The translations under genes were made by a program, and so were the position numbers. A DNA stretch of 19,629 nt from Candidatus Hadarchaeota archaeon (lineage in GTDB: Archaea > Hadarchaeota > Hadarchaeia > Hadarchaeales > Hadarchaeaceae), in the NCBI GenBank assembly GCA_040755315.1, contig JBFMBF010000023.1, forward strand, positions 1 through 19,629, in the 5' to 3' direction. The notes under the pieces were generated by a model. That model was not told the origin of the DNA, searched no databases, and saw nothing but the letters and a program-made list of their open reading frames with translations. Shown in pieces: positions 1,548 through 7,960 of this stretch; position 1 is the stretch's first letter, and each line of letters opens with the position of its first letter.

Positions 1548-2225
1548 CTACATTTTGCCCGCCAGCTTCGCCTCCCCCACCAGCACCAGCCCCAGCACCG
1601 CGTCTTCTTTTTTTGCAGCCTCGGTCGTGAAAAAAAGGCCCACGTACTGAGCATCACGGACGTGCATTTCCCTCTCTCCGGCGATCTCTCGGGCCCTCTC
1701 CAGCTCCGAATAACCTTTCAAAAGCAAAACACCGTTCGGGATGTCATCTACCTGCACCACCTTGGTCCCCGACGAACACTTGCCGCAACTACCAGATGCG
1801 CACTCGAGCGCCGGCCTCCCGCAGACCTCGCAGATGGCAGCTCCCCAGACCAGCCGTGAGACAGAGTTTCCCACCCTGAGAAGCTCCTCCTTGTCAATCG
1901 CCCGCTGTATCTTCAGCTTACAGCTCTTGAAGATGCTGATTTCCTTCCCCTTCCAAGTGAGCTTGGCAACGCCGAGCGATGGGCTGCACCTGAGCTCCGA
2001 GAAGCGCCTCCTGTGGATGTCAAGCAGATAACAGAGGGTCTTGGCGTCTATCCCCTCACCTTCCTCTTTCTTGAGCTCAATGTCCGCCATCAGCTTCCCC
2101 TTTTCTGAGGCGCACGGCTGCACGTAAACCACCGTATCCTTCCTGACCTTGACAAGCTCGGAAACTTCCATTCCTTTTGAAAGAACGCAACTGTCCTTGA
2201 ACTTCGGAACTGGGATTTCTTTCAC
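1548..2225 (-). CDS. Cys-rich putative Fe-S/metal-binding protein, last gene of the iscS-iscU operon
   Basis: GTG start directly abuts the iscU stop (2226-2228). QPC motif and Cys cluster CEVCGRPALECASGSCGKC (CxxC-x6-C-x4-CxxC). Confidence 0.75.
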   Translation of the reverse strand: MKEIPVPKFKDSCVLSKGMEVSELVKVRKDTVVYVQPCASEKGKLMADIELKKEEGEGIDAKTLCYLLDIHRRRFSELRCSPSLGVAKLTWKGKEISIFKSCKLKIQRAIDKEELLRVGNSVSRLVWGAAICEVCGRPALECASGSCGKCSSGTKVVQVDDIPNGVLLLKGYSELERAREIAGEREMHVRDAQYVGLFFTTEAAKKEDAVLGLVLVGEAKLAGKM

Positions 2226-3716
2226 TCAGGTCCCCTTTGATCCGGCCTGGATTTTCCTGTACTCTGCGAGCGCCTTCTTCAGGGTTTTGTATGCAAGAAC
2301 GGCGCAGTGCATCTTCAGCGCTGGTAGCCCCCCCAATGCCTCCGATATTTCTGTTATCTTCATTTTCTCAGCCTCCTCCACCGTCCTTCCCTTCACCAGC
2401 TCTGTGGTCATCGCGCCAGTGGCTATGTTTGCCGCGCAGTTATGAACAGCGAAGCCCCTAACAAGATAAGAATGAGGCTCATTGGTTACTTCAAAGTTGT
2501 ACACCTTTCCAATGTAATTTTTCTTTTCTACTCTTCTTATCGGCACGAGGAAATAACCTTTAGCTGGCACGACAATTTTGCGCTTTCTTTTGAGTTGAAA
2601 GGCAACGTTGTAATTTGTATTCGAACGAATTTTTCTCCCATCGATTATCGAAGCTGGTCTTTTGGACTTTTTGATATATGACAGAATTCCACCTCTTGCC
2701 AAAATTTCTTGGGTTTGAATTGCGAGTTCCTTGGACCTTGTATCAATCCTATATACCCAAGAATGAGTCTCCTTCATCCTGTAAACGCTTCCATCACCCT
2801 TAAGGTAGGTTTTTATCATTTCCCATTGCTTTTTGAAAGGTAACAGAAGCACTTCTTCCGCCAATTTTTTGCCGGTTGCGTATTTCCCACCAACGGAGAC
2901 AAAAAAACCGGCCCACTTTGTAGAGCAAATGTATACTTCTGCAACATTGCCACGTACCCTGCATTTTGGTTTTTTGTTTGTGACCCTTTCGAGTAAAGTT
3001 TTAACTTCAGAGATGTTCCCAGTCTCTTCTCTGTTAAAAGCAAAAGCTAAAATACGATCATTGGCTGTAGTGTAACCCTCCGAGATGTAAAACCCCAACA
3101 GTTTCATTATATCGGTGGTGTATTTTTTGGAATCTTCTGTCTTGCTGTTCGGAACGAAAATCAAATAATCGCCTTCCGCGAGATATTTTGCTTTAATAAA
3201 CTTCGGTTTCACCGACGGAAGTTCTTCTTTATCTACACGTAACCAAACACACTTGTTCCCTGATTTTCTGGACGAGTCTAGCCATTCTCTTTTTACGCAA
3301 AGCACGGGATGTTCGGGCGTTAACGAGAAGGAATTGAATGTCGAGACAAAAGGAACTATTTTAAGCAAGTTGCCATTGTAGTCTCTCGCGGAAGTTTCAG
3401 CTACAAAATTTCTTTTACCGTCTGAATCTATGGTCGCTTCCCCTACACCCAACGTGGAGATTCGTTTCCATTCTCCTGGATACACTAAAACATATTCATC
3501 CGGCGGCAAGCACCCATACGAAAGGAACTTCGCGTCAACGATTTTGTTGTTCTCGATCTTCAGAAACATCCGAAACATGTCACCACACTGGATATCGCCT
3601 TCGTCCGCCGTCACCGTCGGGTTTTCCATCTCCCCGATGTTTTTCGGGTTCTTGAACATCTCCATCACTTTTTCTGTGTACTTTAGCAGGCTCTTCTCTG
3701 TGTATTCTGCGGGCAT
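2226..3716 (-). CDS. iscU: Fe-S cluster scaffold IscU/NifU-N, intein-containing precursor (496 aa; 138 aa after splicing)
   Basis: YTEKVMEMFKNPKNIG, CGD, KFLSYG|CAA and LPALKMHC motifs give all three IscU Cys ligands once the intein is removed. Directly downstream of iscS. Confidence 0.95.
   Translation of the reverse strand: MPAEYTEKSLLKYTEKVMEMFKNPKNIGEMENPTVTADEGDIQCGDMFRMFLKIENNKIVDAKFLSYGCLPPDEYVLVYPGEWKRISTLGVGEATIDSDGKRNFVAETSARDYNGNLLKIVPFVSTFNSFSLTPEHPVLCVKREWLDSSRKSGNKCVWLRVDKEELPSVKPKFIKAKYLAEGDYLIFVPNSKTEDSKKYTTDIMKLLGFYISEGYTTANDRILAFAFNREETGNISEVKTLLERVTNKKPKCRVRGNVAEVYICSTKWAGFFVSVGGKYATGKKLAEEVLLLPFKKQWEMIKTYLKGDGSVYRMKETHSWVYRIDTRSKELAIQTQEILARGGILSYIKKSKRPASIIDGRKIRSNTNYNVAFQLKRKRKIVVPAKGYFLVPIRRVEKKNYIGKVYNFEVTNEPHSYLVRGFAVHNCAANIATGAMTTELVKGRTVEEAEKMKITEISEALGGLPALKMHCAVLAYKTLKKALAEYRKIQAGSKGT
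2439..3512 (-). mobile_element. Intein with LAGLIDADG homing endonuclease (358 aa) in iscU
   Basis: Block A CLPPD, block B LTPEHPV, endonuclease blocks LLGFYISEG and IKTYLKGDG, block F VYNFEV, terminal AVHN followed by Cys+1. DNA is clearly more AT-rich than the flanking exteins. Confidence 0.95.
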
Positions 3717-3720
3717 CCTT

Positions 3721-4893
3721 TCACAGCTCCTCCGCCTTCACCGGGCTGATCTTCCTCAGGTTTTCTATCACGCGCGGCACCACGTCTAGGGTGTAGTTAA
3801 TCTCATCCTCGGTGTTGTAACGGCTCAGCGTGAACCTTATGGCCCCGTGCGCGACTTCTGCCTTGACCCCTATCGCCGTCATCACGTGGCTGGGCTCAAG
3901 CTTCCTGGTGGAGCAGGCCGAGCCCGTCGTCACCGATATCCCGTTCAGGCTGAGGTGGAGCTGCACGGCCTCCCCCTCCACCCCCTTGAATGAGATGTTT
4001 ACATTTGCAGGGCTTCTCCTCTCGCCGCGCGGGCCGTGGAGCTGGATGTATTTCACCCGCTCCTCAAACCCTTTCATGAGCCTGTCGCGCAGCTTCCTCA
4101 TGTGCTCGACGTGGCGCTCGAAACCGTCGAATGCAAGCTCGGTGGCCTTCGCAAACCCGACTATCCCGGGGACGTTCTCGGTGCCGGGCTTCAGCGTGAA
4201 GAGCGAGATATAGCCGTGTGAGGTCGGCTGAATCGGTGTCTTTTCCCTGATGTATAACGCCCCGACCCCCTTCGGCCCGTGGATCTTGTGGGCGCTCAAG
4301 CTCAGCAAATCTATCCTGGCCTTTTCCACGTCCACCGGCACCCGCCCGTAGCCCGCGGCAGCGTTGACGTGAAACAGAATTCCACGGCCTCTCTCCTTCA
4401 GGATTTTCCCGATTTCTTCAACCGGCTGGACCGTCCCAATCTCGTCGTTGACGTTCGCCACGCTGACCAGGACAGTTTTGTCTGTTATCGCTTTCTCGAT
4501 GTCTTCAGGTTTCACAAAGCCCTCCTTATCTACAGGGAGGTAGTCAACCTTGAAGCCGTCTTTTTCCAAAACCTCGCACACTCGCAGCACGGAGGGGTTC
4601 TCAATTTTTGTTGTGATTACATGCTTGCCCCGCGACCGGCTTGCCAGCGCCGCCCCCCTTATTGCGATGTCGTTGGCCTCCGTGGCGCCGGATGTGAAGA
4701 CAATCTCTCCCGGTTTGGCACCGATTGTCCTGGAAATTATTTTCTGAGACCTCTCGACGGCATCCGCGGCCTCCTGTCCGGCGGAGTACAGCATGATCGG
4801 GTGCCCGAACTTCTCCGTGAAGTAGGGGAGCATCGCATCTACGACTTCCTTCGCGACCGGCGTGGTGGAGCCGTTGTCAAGATATGCCTTCAT
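3721..4893 (-). CDS. iscS: Cysteine desulfurase family protein (IscS/NifS group I) with atypical PLP pocket
   Basis: YLDNGSTTP, IVFTSGATEAN, SAHKIHGPKG (PLP Lys), PGTENVPGI, GSACST (catalytic Cys), AIRFTL. 4-nt gap to iscU. Confidence 0.92.
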   Translation of the reverse strand: MKAYLDNGSTTPVAKEVVDAMLPYFTEKFGHPIMLYSAGQEAADAVERSQKIISRTIGAKPGEIVFTSGATEANDIAIRGAALASRSRGKHVITTKIENPSVLRVCEVLEKDGFKVDYLPVDKEGFVKPEDIEKAITDKTVLVSVANVNDEIGTVQPVEEIGKILKERGRGILFHVNAAAGYGRVPVDVEKARIDLLSLSAHKIHGPKGVGALYIREKTPIQPTSHGYISLFTLKPGTENVPGIVGFAKATELAFDGFERHVEHMRKLRDRLMKGFEERVKYIQLHGPRGERRSPANVNISFKGVEGEAVQLHLSLNGISVTTGSACSTRKLEPSHVMTAIGVKAEVAHGAIRFTLSRYNTEDEINYTLDVVPRVIENLRKISPVKAEEL

Positions 4894-4996
4894 CCAATCA
4901 TACTAAAATGCGGCTTGGAATGTTTAAACTTGGAGGGTAGCGGATTTTGCTGGCGTACTGTATTTATGGAAAAGAATTTATTGATTTTGGAAACCT
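4894..4996. promoter_or_regulatory. Divergent promoter region between iscS and the lipoate operon
   Basis: TTTAAA at 4923-4928, about 30 nt upstream of the iscS start on the minus strand. TTTAT at 4963-4967, about 30 nt upstream of ATG4997. Both fit archaeal TATA spacing for leaderless or short-leader mRNAs. Confidence 0.5.
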
Positions 4997-5281
4997 ATGC
5001 AGTATGCTGAGTTCAAGGCCCCGAAGGGCGTGATCAAGGTGGAGCTGGAGCTGTCCGGGGAAAAAATATCCCGGGTCTCCATAAGCGGGGACTTTTTCAT
5101 GTACCCGGAGGACGCACTGGAAGAGCTTGAAAAATCGCTGTCGGGGGTTGCCGTCGAGAGGGGCGCGTTGATTGAAGCTGTCCAAGGTTTCTACCGCAGG
5201 ACTGGGGCTGAGACGCCGATGGTCGAGCCTGGTCACTGGGTCGAGGCAATCCTTCGCGCGGCTGGAGGTGGGCAGGGATGA
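4997..5281 (+). CDS. lplB: Lipoate-protein ligase C-terminal/accessory subunit (Lpl-C, LplB-like)
   Basis: KAPKGVIKVEL...ISGDFFMYPEDALEELEKSLSG is typical of the Lip_prot_lig_C domain. ATGA overlap with the next gene. Confidence 0.88.
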   Translation: MQYAEFKAPKGVIKVELELSGEKISRVSISGDFFMYPEDALEELEKSLSGVAVERGALIEAVQGFYRRTGAETPMVEPGHWVEAILRAAGGGQG

Positions 5282-6084
5282 GCGAAGCCGTTGTTATAAA
5301 TATAACAAGGGCACTGGAGGTCTCCCCGGACGAATGGCGGCTGCTCCCCCTCCGCATCGACGAGGCTTTTACGTCAATGGCGATCGACGAGGCCCTGCTC
5401 AGGCTCAACGCCGAGGGCAAGGCCCCGAACACCGTCAGATTCTGGCGCTGGCAGCCGTCCGCCGTCTCCATCGGCTGCTTCCAGAGCCTCGAGAAGGAGG
5501 TGGACCTCGGGGTGGCTAGAAAATATGGAGTCGACGTCGTCAGGAGAATCACAGGCGGCGGCGCAGTCTTCCACGACTACGGCGGCGAGCTGACTTACAG
5601 CGTCGTCTGCCGCCAGGGCGACGTCCCCGACGACATCATCGAGTCATACAAGATTATCTGCGGCGGCCTCGTGAACGGCTTCAAGCAGCTCGGGCTCAAG
5701 GCTGAGTTCAGGCCGGTCAACGACGTCCAGGTCGGCGGCAGGAAAATCTCGGGAAGCGCCCAGACCCGCAGGTGGGGCTCGGTCCTCCAGCACGGGACTG
5801 TCCTGATCTCGCCGGACGTGCGGAAGATGTTCGAGCTTCTGAAGGTGAGCCCGGAGAAAATCTCGGACAAGTTCATCGCCTCGGTTTTCGAACGCGTCAC
5901 AACCGTCGAGCGGGAGCTCGGCCGCAGGCCCAGCATGGGAGAGGTGCGGGAGGCGATGGCCAAAGGCTTTGAGGAATCGCTCGGCGTGGCACTTGCGGAA
6001 GACGACCTGACAAAAGAGGAGATTGCCCTAGCAGAAAAGCTCAGACCAGATTACGCTTCTGAAAAACAGCTGAAAAAGAGATAA
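5278..6084 (+). CDS. lplA: Lipoate-protein ligase catalytic subunit (Lpl-N, LplA family)
   Basis: MAIDEALL, VSIGCFQ, RRITGGGAVFHD, NDVQVGGRKISGSAQ and QHGT motifs of the BPL/LplA/LipB family. Confidence 0.92.
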   Translation: MSEAVVINITRALEVSPDEWRLLPLRIDEAFTSMAIDEALLRLNAEGKAPNTVRFWRWQPSAVSIGCFQSLEKEVDLGVARKYGVDVVRRITGGGAVFHDYGGELTYSVVCRQGDVPDDIIESYKIICGGLVNGFKQLGLKAEFRPVNDVQVGGRKISGSAQTRRWGSVLQHGTVLISPDVRKMFELLKVSPEKISDKFIASVFERVTTVERELGRRPSMGEVREAMAKGFEESLGVALAEDDLTKEEIALAEKLRPDYASEKQLKKR

Positions 6085-6117
6085 ACGGCGGCATGTTAAA
6101 ATTTCCACGGGCCAGAT

Positions 6118-7005
6118 ATGATGAACCACTACAACGGAAGATTACTTTCAGCCTGCTACCCTCACCCAAACTTCCCGACCATTTCAGTAACGGGCGGCTC
6201 CTGCGCCTTGAGCTGCAAGCACTGTAACAAGCGCTACCTCCATGGGATGATCTCCTGTACTTCTCCAGATGTCTTATTTACGACATGCACAAAGATGGCG
6301 TCGAAAGGGGCGCGGGGAATTTTGCTCAGCGGAGGGTACAACGCCGATGGTTTCGTGCCGTTCGAGCCATTTCTGGACGCCATCGCGAGAATCAAAAGCG
6401 AGACCGGACTTTTCATCAGCGCCCACACAGGAATCATCCCGGGCTGGCTTGCCAATGAGTTGGGCCGCGCCGGGGTTGACCAAGCGGACTTCGACATCAT
6501 CGGGGATGATGAAACAATCAAATTTGTGACGGGTCTGGACAAGAAGGTCGAGGACTACCGCCACTCGATCAGGGCGCTTGAAAAGACCCTGCCCCATATC
6601 GCCCCGCACATCTGTGTCGGTATCCACGGAGGGCAGCTCAAGGGAGAACTCAGGGCGCTTGAACTGGCTTCTGAGATAAATCCTTCCGTCCTTGTGCTTC
6701 TTTCTTTTGTACCCACTCCCGGCACCAATTTTGAGGGAATCAGGCCCGCCTCCGCCTCTGAGTTTGGAAAAATAGTGGCCGCCGCGAGCGCCGCCATGCC
6801 GGACTCCGAGATAGCTCTCGGATGCATGCGCCCGCGCCAAGGCAGGGGGGAGTTGGAGCTAGAGGCCCTTCGCGCCGGTGCCGACAGGATAGAGCTGCCG
6901 TCAGTTGTGACAATAAGGGCCGCAGAGAAGATGGGACTTCAGGTCCGGAGGCTGAACGCCTGTTGTTCAATCCCTCCCGAGCTGGCCGGTGATTTCATTG
7001 CCTGA
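6118..7005 (+). CDS. lipS1: Radical SAM lipoyl synthase subunit LipS1 (archaeal type)
   Basis: CALSCKHC radical SAM motif, GILLSGG, and C-terminal GCMRP and CC motifs characteristic of LipS1. Lies next to lplA and lipS2. Confidence 0.85.
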   Translation: MMNHYNGRLLSACYPHPNFPTISVTGGSCALSCKHCNKRYLHGMISCTSPDVLFTTCTKMASKGARGILLSGGYNADGFVPFEPFLDAIARIKSETGLFISAHTGIIPGWLANELGRAGVDQADFDIIGDDETIKFVTGLDKKVEDYRHSIRALEKTLPHIAPHICVGIHGGQLKGELRALELASEINPSVLVLLSFVPTPGTNFEGIRPASASEFGKIVAAASAAMPDSEIALGCMRPRQGRGELELEALRAGADRIELPSVVTIRAAEKMGLQVRRLNACCSIPPELAGDFIA

Positions 7006-7960
7006 GCATGTCAGGGTTGCTTTCGGTACTGGGGCGGTGCTGGGTCTGTGGGACGGCCGCATGGAAGTAAAGCCGACCACCGCACACCTCCTCACGTATC
7101 ACGACGGGCGCTGCACCGCCAATTGCAAGTTCTGCCCGCAGGCCAGTGGGAGTTCGGCTGATACCAACATGCTCTCCCGCGTCCTCTGGCCGCCATACCA
7201 GCTGGAAAAGGTATTTTCAGCTTTTGAAAAGAGCATGAATAGTTTCAGCAGGGTCTGCATCCAGGCGGTCAACTACCCGGGCGTCGCCGATGACATCTGC
7301 AGACTCGTTGAGAATGTGAAGAGCGCCTGCAACCTCCCGATTTCAGTGTCATGCCAGCCGATGACAAGAGATGACATGGCAAAGCTGGCCTCGCTCGGCG
7401 TCGACAGAATATGCGTTCCGCTCGACGCCGCGACTCCTGAGATATTCGAGAGAGTCAAGGGCGGGTACAGCTGGAAGACGCACATGGACTCTCTGAAGGC
7501 GGCACACGAGGTGTTCGGATTCCGTGTGACCACACACCTCATTGTGGGGCTGGGTGAGAGCGAACGCGAGATGGTGCAAACGATAGGGATGCTCGACAAG
7601 TCCGGGACCACCGTCGCCCTGTTTGCTTTCACTCCCATCAGGGGCACTTCTTTGTCTGAACTAGAAAGGCCCGACATCGGCAGCTACAGGAGAATCCAGC
7701 TCGCACGTTACCTGATATCAAAACAGATCGGCAGGGGAGAAGACATGGCTTTTGCTGGCGAAAAGCTCGTGGACTTTGGAGTTGAAAAAAACACTCTGGA
7801 AAAAGCCGTGAATTCGGGCGAGCCGTTCATGACATCCGGCTGCCCCGGATGCAACCGGCCATTTTACAACGAATCTCCGCGCGGCCCGATGTACAACTTC
7901 CCAAGAAGGCCGACCAAGAAAGAGATTGAAATCATCAAAAGTTCACTTGCCCAAGAGTAG
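6989..7960 (+). CDS. lipS2: Radical SAM lipoyl synthase subunit LipS2 (archaeal type)
   Basis: CTANCKFC motif, LSRVLWP, THLIVGLGE, and C-terminal TSGCPGCNRPFYNE characteristic of LipS2. Confidence 0.87.
   Translation: MISLPEHVRVAFGTGAVLGLWDGRMEVKPTTAHLLTYHDGRCTANCKFCPQASGSSADTNMLSRVLWPPYQLEKVFSAFEKSMNSFSRVCIQAVNYPGVADDICRLVENVKSACNLPISVSCQPMTRDDMAKLASLGVDRICVPLDAATPEIFERVKGGYSWKTHMDSLKAAHEVFGFRVTTHLIVGLGESEREMVQTIGMLDKSGTTVALFAFTPIRGTSLSELERPDIGSYRRIQLARYLISKQIGRGEDMAFAGEKLVDFGVEKNTLEKAVNSGEPFMTSGCPGCNRPFYNESPRGPMYNFPRRPTKKEIEIIKSSLAQE

Follow-up and report, generated by a model that had tools for sequence, protein, structure and literature searches.

Introduction

It is unsettled whether inteins are purely selfish elements or additionally regulate the proteins that carry them; among Fe-S proteins, SufB is the main example. 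The SufB precursor of M. tuberculosis is described with residues G252, C253, H610, N611, and C612 and an intein of 359 aa (PMC8891592, partial text), and, according to a review, an oxidant-induced disulfide between Cys1 and Cys+1 blocks its splicing (PMC8529194, partial text). In E. coli SufB, Cys254 is an essential persulfide acceptor and not a cluster ligand (PMC5571166, partial text). The intein of P. abyssi MoaA, a radical-SAM protein, also lies in an oxygen-labile Fe-S protein and has been proposed as a redox switch (PMC10663303, partial text). PorB, SufB, and radical-SAM proteins were given as intein hosts in a 2016 survey, the archaeal PorB in its supplement (PMC4760082, partial text). 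On the host side, the cluster ligands of E. coli IscU are C37, C63, and C106, with D39 or H105, and the MIS system is defined as a desulfurase paired with a scaffold, lacking chaperones and carriers, with membership decided by phylogeny (PMC13066941, partial text). In A. fulgidus an inactive IscS paralogue has been described (PMC8918507, partial text).

Here we analyse a stretch of 19,629 nucleotides (the window; contig JBFMBF010000023.1 of assembly GCA_040755315.1) from a Candidatus Hadarchaeota archaeon, in which the iscU gene is interrupted by an intein. IscU is apparently an undescribed host and site for an otherwise canonical homing intein.

Results and discussion

A class-1 intein splits IscU at its second ligand cysteine

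The iscU precursor is encoded by one unbroken reading frame (Table 1). Its product matched the Pfam family NifU_N in two pieces (E 1.4e-33), with LAGLIDADG_3 (PF14528, Pfam) inside the insert (E 2.6e-9) and TIGR01443 (intein_Cterm) at 23.4 bits against a cut-off of 15.6, and the conserved FG/C (a slash marks the splice junction throughout) is where its alignment to A. fulgidus IscU (4eb5_C) is interrupted. Pfam Intein_splicing left the window protein unmatched, yet it is given for many homologues. The class-1 residues are complete (C1, T65/H68, H357/N358, and Cys+1), and the two LAGLIDADG motifs carry the acidic residues E145 and D240, as expected of an endonuclease-containing intein. The predicted structure of the intein (pLDDT 95) resembled best the homing-endonuclease inteins TliVMA, PI-SceI, and PI-PfuI (top E 9e-20); it matched HINT domains with Z scores of 17-27, placing it in the HINT fold, and its endonuclease part matched the fold of I-DmoI. 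The third-position GC content (GC3) of the intein is 0.41, versus 0.69-0.72 in the exteins and 0.77 in iscS.

The joined exteins show the features of an IscU/MisU scaffold, namely the NifU_N fold, the Cys/Asp/Cys/His-Cys ligands, and LPALK as an LPPxK-like motif; C44, D46, C427, H470, and C471 correspond to the E. coli ligand set. We confirm that the insert is a canonical class-1 LAGLIDADG intein at FLSYG/CAA of IscU. A first-pass annotation, made from the letters of the window, had described a 358-aa intein between KFLSYG and CAA, with the second of the three cluster-ligating cysteines as Cys+1 and about 2.6 times the length of its host, and all of this held: the borders at 2439-3512 are exact, the extein cysteines C44, C427 (= +1), and C471 line up with C37, C63, and C106 of E. 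coli, and the 358 aa compare with 68 + 70 = 138 aa of joined exteins (ratio 2.6).

Table 1. Features of the iscU locus, in positions of the window.
Feature	Position	Strand	Remarks
iscU precursor gene	2226..3716	-	MisU-type single-domain Fe-S scaffold, 496 aa
N-extein	3513..3716	-	68 aa, C-terminal end KFLSYG; holds Cys44 and Asp46
First ligand Cys44 (N-extein)	3585-3587	-
Asp46 (N-extein)	3579-3581	-
Intein	2439..3512	-	358 aa, CLPP...FAVHN, Cys1 to His357-Asn358; GC3 low (0.41)
Intein Cys1, block A nucleophile	3510..3512	-	In 208/208 parsed rows, a residue that the parser requires
Block B, T65-x-x-H68	3309..3320	-	T and H in 208/208 rows
LAGLIDADG homing-endonuclease domain (approximate)	2583..3128	-	Precursor residues 197-378; I-DmoI match range; PF14528
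First LAGLIDADG motif, LLGFYISEG	3075..3101	-	Acidic E145; E in 152/155 IscU rows
Second LAGLIDADG motif, MIKTYLKGDG	2790..2819	-	Acidic D240; D in 152/155 IscU rows
Block G, His-Asn	2439..2444	-
Cys+1	2436..2438	-	Second IscU ligand cysteine (E. coli Cys63 equivalent)
C-extein	2226..2438	-	70 aa, first residues CAAN; LPALK-MHC motif
His470, Cys471 (C-extein)	2304-2309	-
iscS/nifS-type cysteine desulfurase homologue	3721..4893	-	Several PLP-site residues deviate; ends 5 bases ahead of iscU start
Third gene, likely same operon	1548..2225	-	225 aa, cysteine-rich, without family; syntenic in G001, G002, G025, G031

Genomic setting

The order iscS - iscU - cysteine-rich gene also occurs in four relatives (G001, G002, G025, and G031). 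The window IscS (3721-4893) keeps the PLP lysine and the loop cysteine and reads IENPSV for IEHHSI, FHVNAAA for FHTDAAQ, and HGYISL for GGTQE, so that its PLP site is without the usual His, Asp, and Gln; the FHVN variant is shared by the same four relatives. This IscS may be non-catalytic, similar to the inactive A. fulgidus paralogue but through other changes. The 225-aa protein, with a CxxC...CxxxxCxxC cysteine pattern and no match in Pfam or NCBIfam, belongs to a hypothetical Atlas cluster of 72 members, mostly archaeal and, where known, mostly Hadarchaeota; it is a candidate for an extra MIS component or regulator. Divergent from iscS-iscU, the lipoate genes lplB, lplA, lipS1, and lipS2 (4997-7960, plus strand), which include two radical-SAM Fe-S enzymes, are syntenic in G002.

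The interrupted gene encodes the sole IscU found in the window genome (G000; 86.6% complete). SufB or SmsB was found neither in this genome nor in its genus (0/3 genomes), so that the window IscU is the only scaffold found, and the IscS-IscU pair without SufB/SmsB fits a two-gene MIS system. A second desulfurase, of class II (SufS-like), is encoded at G000:C6:3351-4499 despite no SufB being found in the genome. The nearest named homologue of the precursor (P0003) is labelled Hadesarchaea. G000 holds two further inteins, in hosts that we take to be TFIIB and a secretion ATPase; in the TFIIB-like gene (G000:C39 ~3500-5950, minus strand; L283) the intein apparently ends in Lys-Asp before Thr+1, not in His-Asn.

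IscU inteins form one lineage with SufB and PorB inteins

The first-pass annotation had proposed searching for other IscU proteins with an intein at this site and placing the intein in a phylogeny with those of SufB. A protein search gave 297 matches among 7996 scored candidates, and all 120 listed homologues (120/120) combine NifU_N with LAGLIDADG and are split at the same G/C. A scan of GTDB gave 316 relatives, the best 80 of which comprise 36 IscU, 38 SufB, and 6 PorB loci; 78 of these 80 have a Gly/Cys N-junction, and in the remaining two the frame is broken there. Among these 80 loci, the IscU hosts are archaeal (Nano-, Aenigm-, Woese-, Pace-, Iain-, and Micrarchaeota, Thermoplasmatales, and Methanobacteriota) as well as bacterial (Omnitrophota, Patescibacteria, Aerophobetes, Caldiserica, Armatimonadota, Planctomycetia, and Clostridia). 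The top matches of an index-free search across 1.84 billion representatives again had IscU, SufB, and PorB as hosts. With a lineage profile, for which several top matches belonged to the training set, all 28 matches of at least 231 bits had IscU, SufB, or PorB hosts, the best other host scoring 209. The nearest relatives of the window intein come from Nanoarchaeota and Patescibacteria-type genomes.

The parsed set comprised 208 rows, 155 of them IscU rows that include duplicates between loci and proteins; L088, L090, L093, L124, L126, and P0134 were left out, and trees were built on subsamples of 106, 53, 41, and 52 rows. At the second-cysteine IscU site, inteins are 354-366 aa long, and no endonuclease-less mini-intein was seen in the parsed rows. 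In 154/155 IscU rows the exteins retain all ligand residues. An internal cysteine, C88, is present in 142/155 IscU inteins and is not kept in those of PorB or SufB. In two IscU proteins (P0136 and L254), the same TFG/ site holds a divergent Ser1 intein; as this intein has no Cys1, it forms a natural control for a disulfide-based switch.

In two IQ-TREE runs (LG+G4; 53 and 41 rows, with 17 and 12 outside inteins), the IscU, SufB, and PorB inteins formed one clade (100/99), in which the SufB inteins are a subclade of their own (97/92, and 95/88 in the second run). The second run included P0434, an 846-aa SufB with G252, C253, H610, N611, and C612 that represents the cluster named M. tuberculosis intein-containing SufB. 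Its intein aligned with the window intein over the full length at 30% identity (E 1e-42) and scored 342 bits on the lineage profile. The window intein thus belongs by common descent to the SufB-type (M. tuberculosis) lineage, a link stronger than the first-pass annotation had guessed. It lies outside the SufB intein allele family, that of the SufB Cys254-equivalent site, as its host is a NifU_N protein.

The PorB inteins of this clade sit at SGIG/CGS, a site that aligns to Cys46 of S. tokodaii PorB, presumably a ligand. They were nested within the IscU inteins in one tree (96/96), and the second tree gave no resolution there. The DNA junction shared by the IscU, SufB, and PorB inteins is only about GGn/TGy. 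The lineage has likely jumped between the non-homologous genes iscU, sufB, and porB, each of which has an invariant Gly-Cys. As a weak control, drawn from 1038 crudely predicted proteins, 7 similar Gly/Cys motifs elsewhere in the window genome were all empty, the 7 proteins being named by their motifs. Among 23 viral loci, judged by their junction flanks, none carried the intein in IscU, and the best full-length viral match to the window intein (30%) is a SufB intein. A viral contig (L227:2296-4785) encodes SufB with an intein sister to the mycobacterial one (100/100), a possible phage vector of the SufB intein. Four further SufB proteins (P0229, P0197, L256, and L257) carry another intein lineage, starting with CF[VT].GT, at the same Cys254-equivalent, which is an independent invasion of that site.

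Inteins in IscU or NifU were absent from the literature searched by listings, outside which lie InBase and most subscription papers; the first-pass view that IscU is not recognised as a well-characterised intein host is borne out within that scope. One of the two supplement files of the 2016 survey is searchable, and in it "nifu" and "scaffold" each occur 0 times and "iscu" once, as part of a species name (PMC4760082, partial text).

A second lineage occupies the first ligand cysteine

A separate intein lineage sits at the first ligand cysteine of IscU, and some proteins hold both inteins. An extra mini-intein of 149-159 aa at GNP[VI]/CGD is present in 8/120 listed IscU homologues, and L070, L081, and L144-L146 are also doubly interrupted; the first-cysteine intein occurs alone in mini form in P0270, P0272-P0274, and P0276, and endonuclease-containing forms of ~372 aa exist too. 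The best 80 of 101 metagenome loci comprise 56 IscU, 16 PorB, and 8 other hosts, counts biased by a query built from IscU and PorB rows. First-cysteine IscU inteins and PorB inteins at WCPG/CGD form a separate clade (99/97), and the latter site aligns to Cys15 (CXGC) of S. tokodaii PorB, a stated cluster ligand (PMC5020499). In one tree, not in the other, the sister of this clade was a ferredoxin intein (99/92), located at the first cysteine of that 4Fe-4S protein. Three PorB proteins (L099, L104, and L203) have both lineages, at CPG/C and GIG/C, mirroring the doubly interrupted IscU.

Yet another lineage occupies CxxxCxx/C of a radical-SAM protein (P0149), and further intein lineages in similar genomes likewise sit at invariant functional cysteines. 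Since the inteins of PorB, of a ferredoxin, and of a radical-SAM protein also have a ligand cysteine as +1 residue, this choice of +1 nucleophile is recurrent and not unique to IscU. In L264, an intein lies within a CxxC active site (SYCVT/CDGP), the host being presumably a thioredoxin-reductase-like protein. No third-cysteine IscU intein occurred among the listed rows of the general IscU searches (58 weaker Omnitrophota rows lie outside them).

Empty alleles and patchy occurrence

The same-genus genome G002 has a syntenic, uninterrupted iscU of 138 aa (FLSFG/CAANIA) that shares 94% identity with the joined exteins and groups as their sister in an extein tree (99/93), and the iscU of G001 is empty too. 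The in-frame insertion is therefore missing from homologous alleles, as befits a class-1 intein, and the syntenic empty allele of G002 argues that the insert is not due to chance. IscU was found in 34/61 genomes, 31 of them of the window phylum, and is split in 2/31 (G000 and G031). The iscU of G025, considered as a split copy, was rejected, its partial match being due to an assembly gap and its junction being empty. With the window intein as query, 66 genomes of the phylum gave a close match in G000 and G031 only, the next best having 29% identity. Within one extein clade, three intein-bearing alleles are dispersed among 12 empty ones. Few genomes of other phyla carry the intein either. In the 201 genomes of Omnitrophota (the phylum of L080), NifU_N was found in 173, with splits in at least 3 genomes plus the seed among the rows listed, 58 weaker rows lying outside them. 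In 121 genomes of Aenigmatarchaeota (the phylum of L066), 3 of the 30 best loci reached a lineage-level score, 2 of them IscU (including the seed) and 1 SufB.

Selfish persistence or regulation of Fe-S supply

The intein probably self-splices via the second ligand cysteine, and it probably owes its persistence to selfish homing and not to selection as a switch. Following established intein chemistry, an N-to-S shift at Cys1 would be followed by transfer to Cys+1, cyclisation of Asn358, and an S-to-N shift, and the spliced exteins would form a normal 138-aa scaffold. The endonuclease would cut empty iscU alleles, with gene conversion thereafter, and retention would be favoured at this site because the invariant ligand cysteine of an essential scaffold would supply the +1 nucleophile, conserve the DNA target, and punish imprecise loss. 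Sensitivity to oxidants or zinc in vitro would be expected as a by-product of cysteine chemistry.

Selfish persistence is favoured by the patchy occurrence and foreign codon usage of the intein together with an intact endonuclease under purifying selection. Judged from its residues, the endonuclease looks active, with the acidic pair mostly kept and no mini form at the site; the G031 copy has N in place of the acidic D of the second motif. The endonuclease dN/dS values were 0.13/1.17 between G000 and G031 and 0.09/0.65 and 0.08/1.27 in two further IscU pairs (ratios of ~0.1, with dS unsaturated), and the exteins of the window and G002 (dN 0.03, dS 1.18) are likewise under purifying selection. 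Endonuclease activity decays after intein fixation (PMC8966425, partial text), and conservation despite this expected decay suggests ongoing homing. Between G000 and G031, synonymous divergence (pS) was lower in the intein (0.61) than in iscS (0.82) or the exteins (0.89), a comparison confounded by differing host GC3. In the native host of another intein, no unspliced precursor was detected (PMC11377839, partial text). Counting against a purely selfish element, all three known hosts of the lineage are occupied at Fe-S or Fe-S-sulfur sites although their common DNA junction is so short and the similar Gly/Cys motifs of the weak control are empty, the second lineage repeats the IscU/PorB pairing, the conservation of C88 is specific to IscU inteins, and endonuclease-less mini-inteins persist at the first cysteine.

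It is unlikely, in our judgement, that a response of splicing to Fe-S status accounts even in part for retention of the intein, the conditional switch that the first-pass annotation had suggested. In such a switch the exteins would be pre-folded, and the +1 nucleophile would be tied up by Zn or Fe bound to C44, D46, Cys+1, H470, and C471, by persulfidation, or by a disulfide between Cys1 and Cys+1, which would keep the scaffold in precursor form until conditions permit splicing. The lineage shared with the M. tuberculosis SufB intein speaks for it, as do the very tight zinc binding of IscU (PMC13066941, partial text), the status of the window IscU as only scaffold found, and the concentration of two lineages at Fe-S cysteines together with the conserved C88, whereas the absence of the intein from most relatives, and purifying selection on the endonuclease that selfish spread explains without host benefit, speak against it; moreover, the three hosts represent few independent events, and a cysteine at positions -6 to -1 occurs in 0/155 IscU rows. 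The exteins of the predicted precursor superpose on 4eb5_C (124 residues, rmsd 1.7 A, Z 22.5), and if this pre-folding is real, Cys+1 could be captured by zinc or iron before splicing takes place; however, AlphaFold2 tends to assemble split domains. It seems likewise doubtful that two independent intein lineages, one spanning IscU, SufB (including that of M. tuberculosis), and PorB and the other IscU, PorB, and possibly ferredoxin, are specialised on Fe-S cysteines and kept because metal, persulfide, or oxidation at the +1 ligand gates splicing. If this were true, a pre-folded IscU precursor would sense its own cofactor site, and doubly interrupted IscU and PorB would amount to two-step post-translational gates on Fe-S supply.

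That no cluster is formed before splicing is plausible, and the assembly of the exteins into the IscU fold in the predicted precursor may call such an incompetent precursor into question. The complete fold modelled from both exteins (pLDDT 91) would suit a precursor that already forms a metal- or cluster-binding scaffold, for which the order of splicing and loading would be immaterial and the intein cheap. Such a lack of any strict gate is nevertheless very improbable, given that no parsed row deviates at the splicing residues, as a need for splicing would predict, that IscS would likely be kept from docking by a 358-aa domain inserted at the ligand loop, and that SufB, as a precursor, reportedly does not bind its partners (PMC8529194, partial text). 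Hardly credible at all is an assembly error, or a gene that has lost its function and holds a dead insertion: the locus comes from a single metagenome-assembled contig and the neighbouring iscS deviates at PLP-site residues, but the frame is unbroken, the architecture is common to all listed homologues, the extein ligands are intact in nearly every IscU row, and both exteins and intein are under purifying selection.

The locus brings the SufB-intein lineage into a 138-aa soluble scaffold with a cluster ligand as +1 nucleophile, and thus provides a compact system in which to ask whether inteins of this kind control Fe-S supply. The 94%-identical empty alleles, the one- and two-intein versions, the D-to-N endonuclease variant, and the sister inteins in two unrelated Fe-S proteins form a natural set, with genes from harmless organisms, that allows intrinsic cysteine sensitivity and host-tuned regulation to be told apart. 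In addition, the list of intein hosts gains an abundant family, IscU, with two insertion sites; this family is missing from the searched part of the 2016 intein survey (PMC4760082, partial text).

Comparison with known systems

Like the MIS system (MisS-MisU, the A. fulgidus IscS-IscU of 4eb5), the window pairs a desulfurase with a single-domain scaffold and holds no chaperones, and the A. fulgidus IscU of 4eb5 is the best PDB match of the exteins. Unlike that scaffold, the window IscU is split by an intein and has GDIQC, not GNPVC, as first-cysteine motif, and its IscS, unlike a MIS-type desulfurase, misses the usual His, Asp, and Gln of the PLP site, with Lys and Cys present. TliVMA, PI-SceI, PI-PfuI, and PI-TkoII share the HINT and endonuclease architecture of the window intein (7qsu: E 9e-20, Z 26.6), at 11-22% identity and in ATPase, reductase, or polymerase genes. 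The redox trap of MoaA is a disulfide between an N-extein cysteine and Cys1; the window intein has no N-extein CxxC near Cys1, and IscU inteins are without such a cysteine. PorB/KorB, the beta subunit of 2-oxoacid:ferredoxin oxidoreductase, is an Fe-S client enzyme and not a scaffold as IscU is.

The closest described counterpart is the M. tuberculosis SufB intein, which has Gly-1, Cys1, the block B His, His-Asn, Cys+1, and a near-equal length in common with the window intein. Stress sensitivity is reported for the SufB intein. Both hosts are Fe-S assembly scaffolds, yet they are non-homologous, and the +1 residues differ in role: the SufB site aligns to E. coli SufB Cys254, so that its Cys+1 is the equivalent of a persulfide acceptor, whereas Cys+1 of the 138-aa window IscU is a direct cluster ligand.
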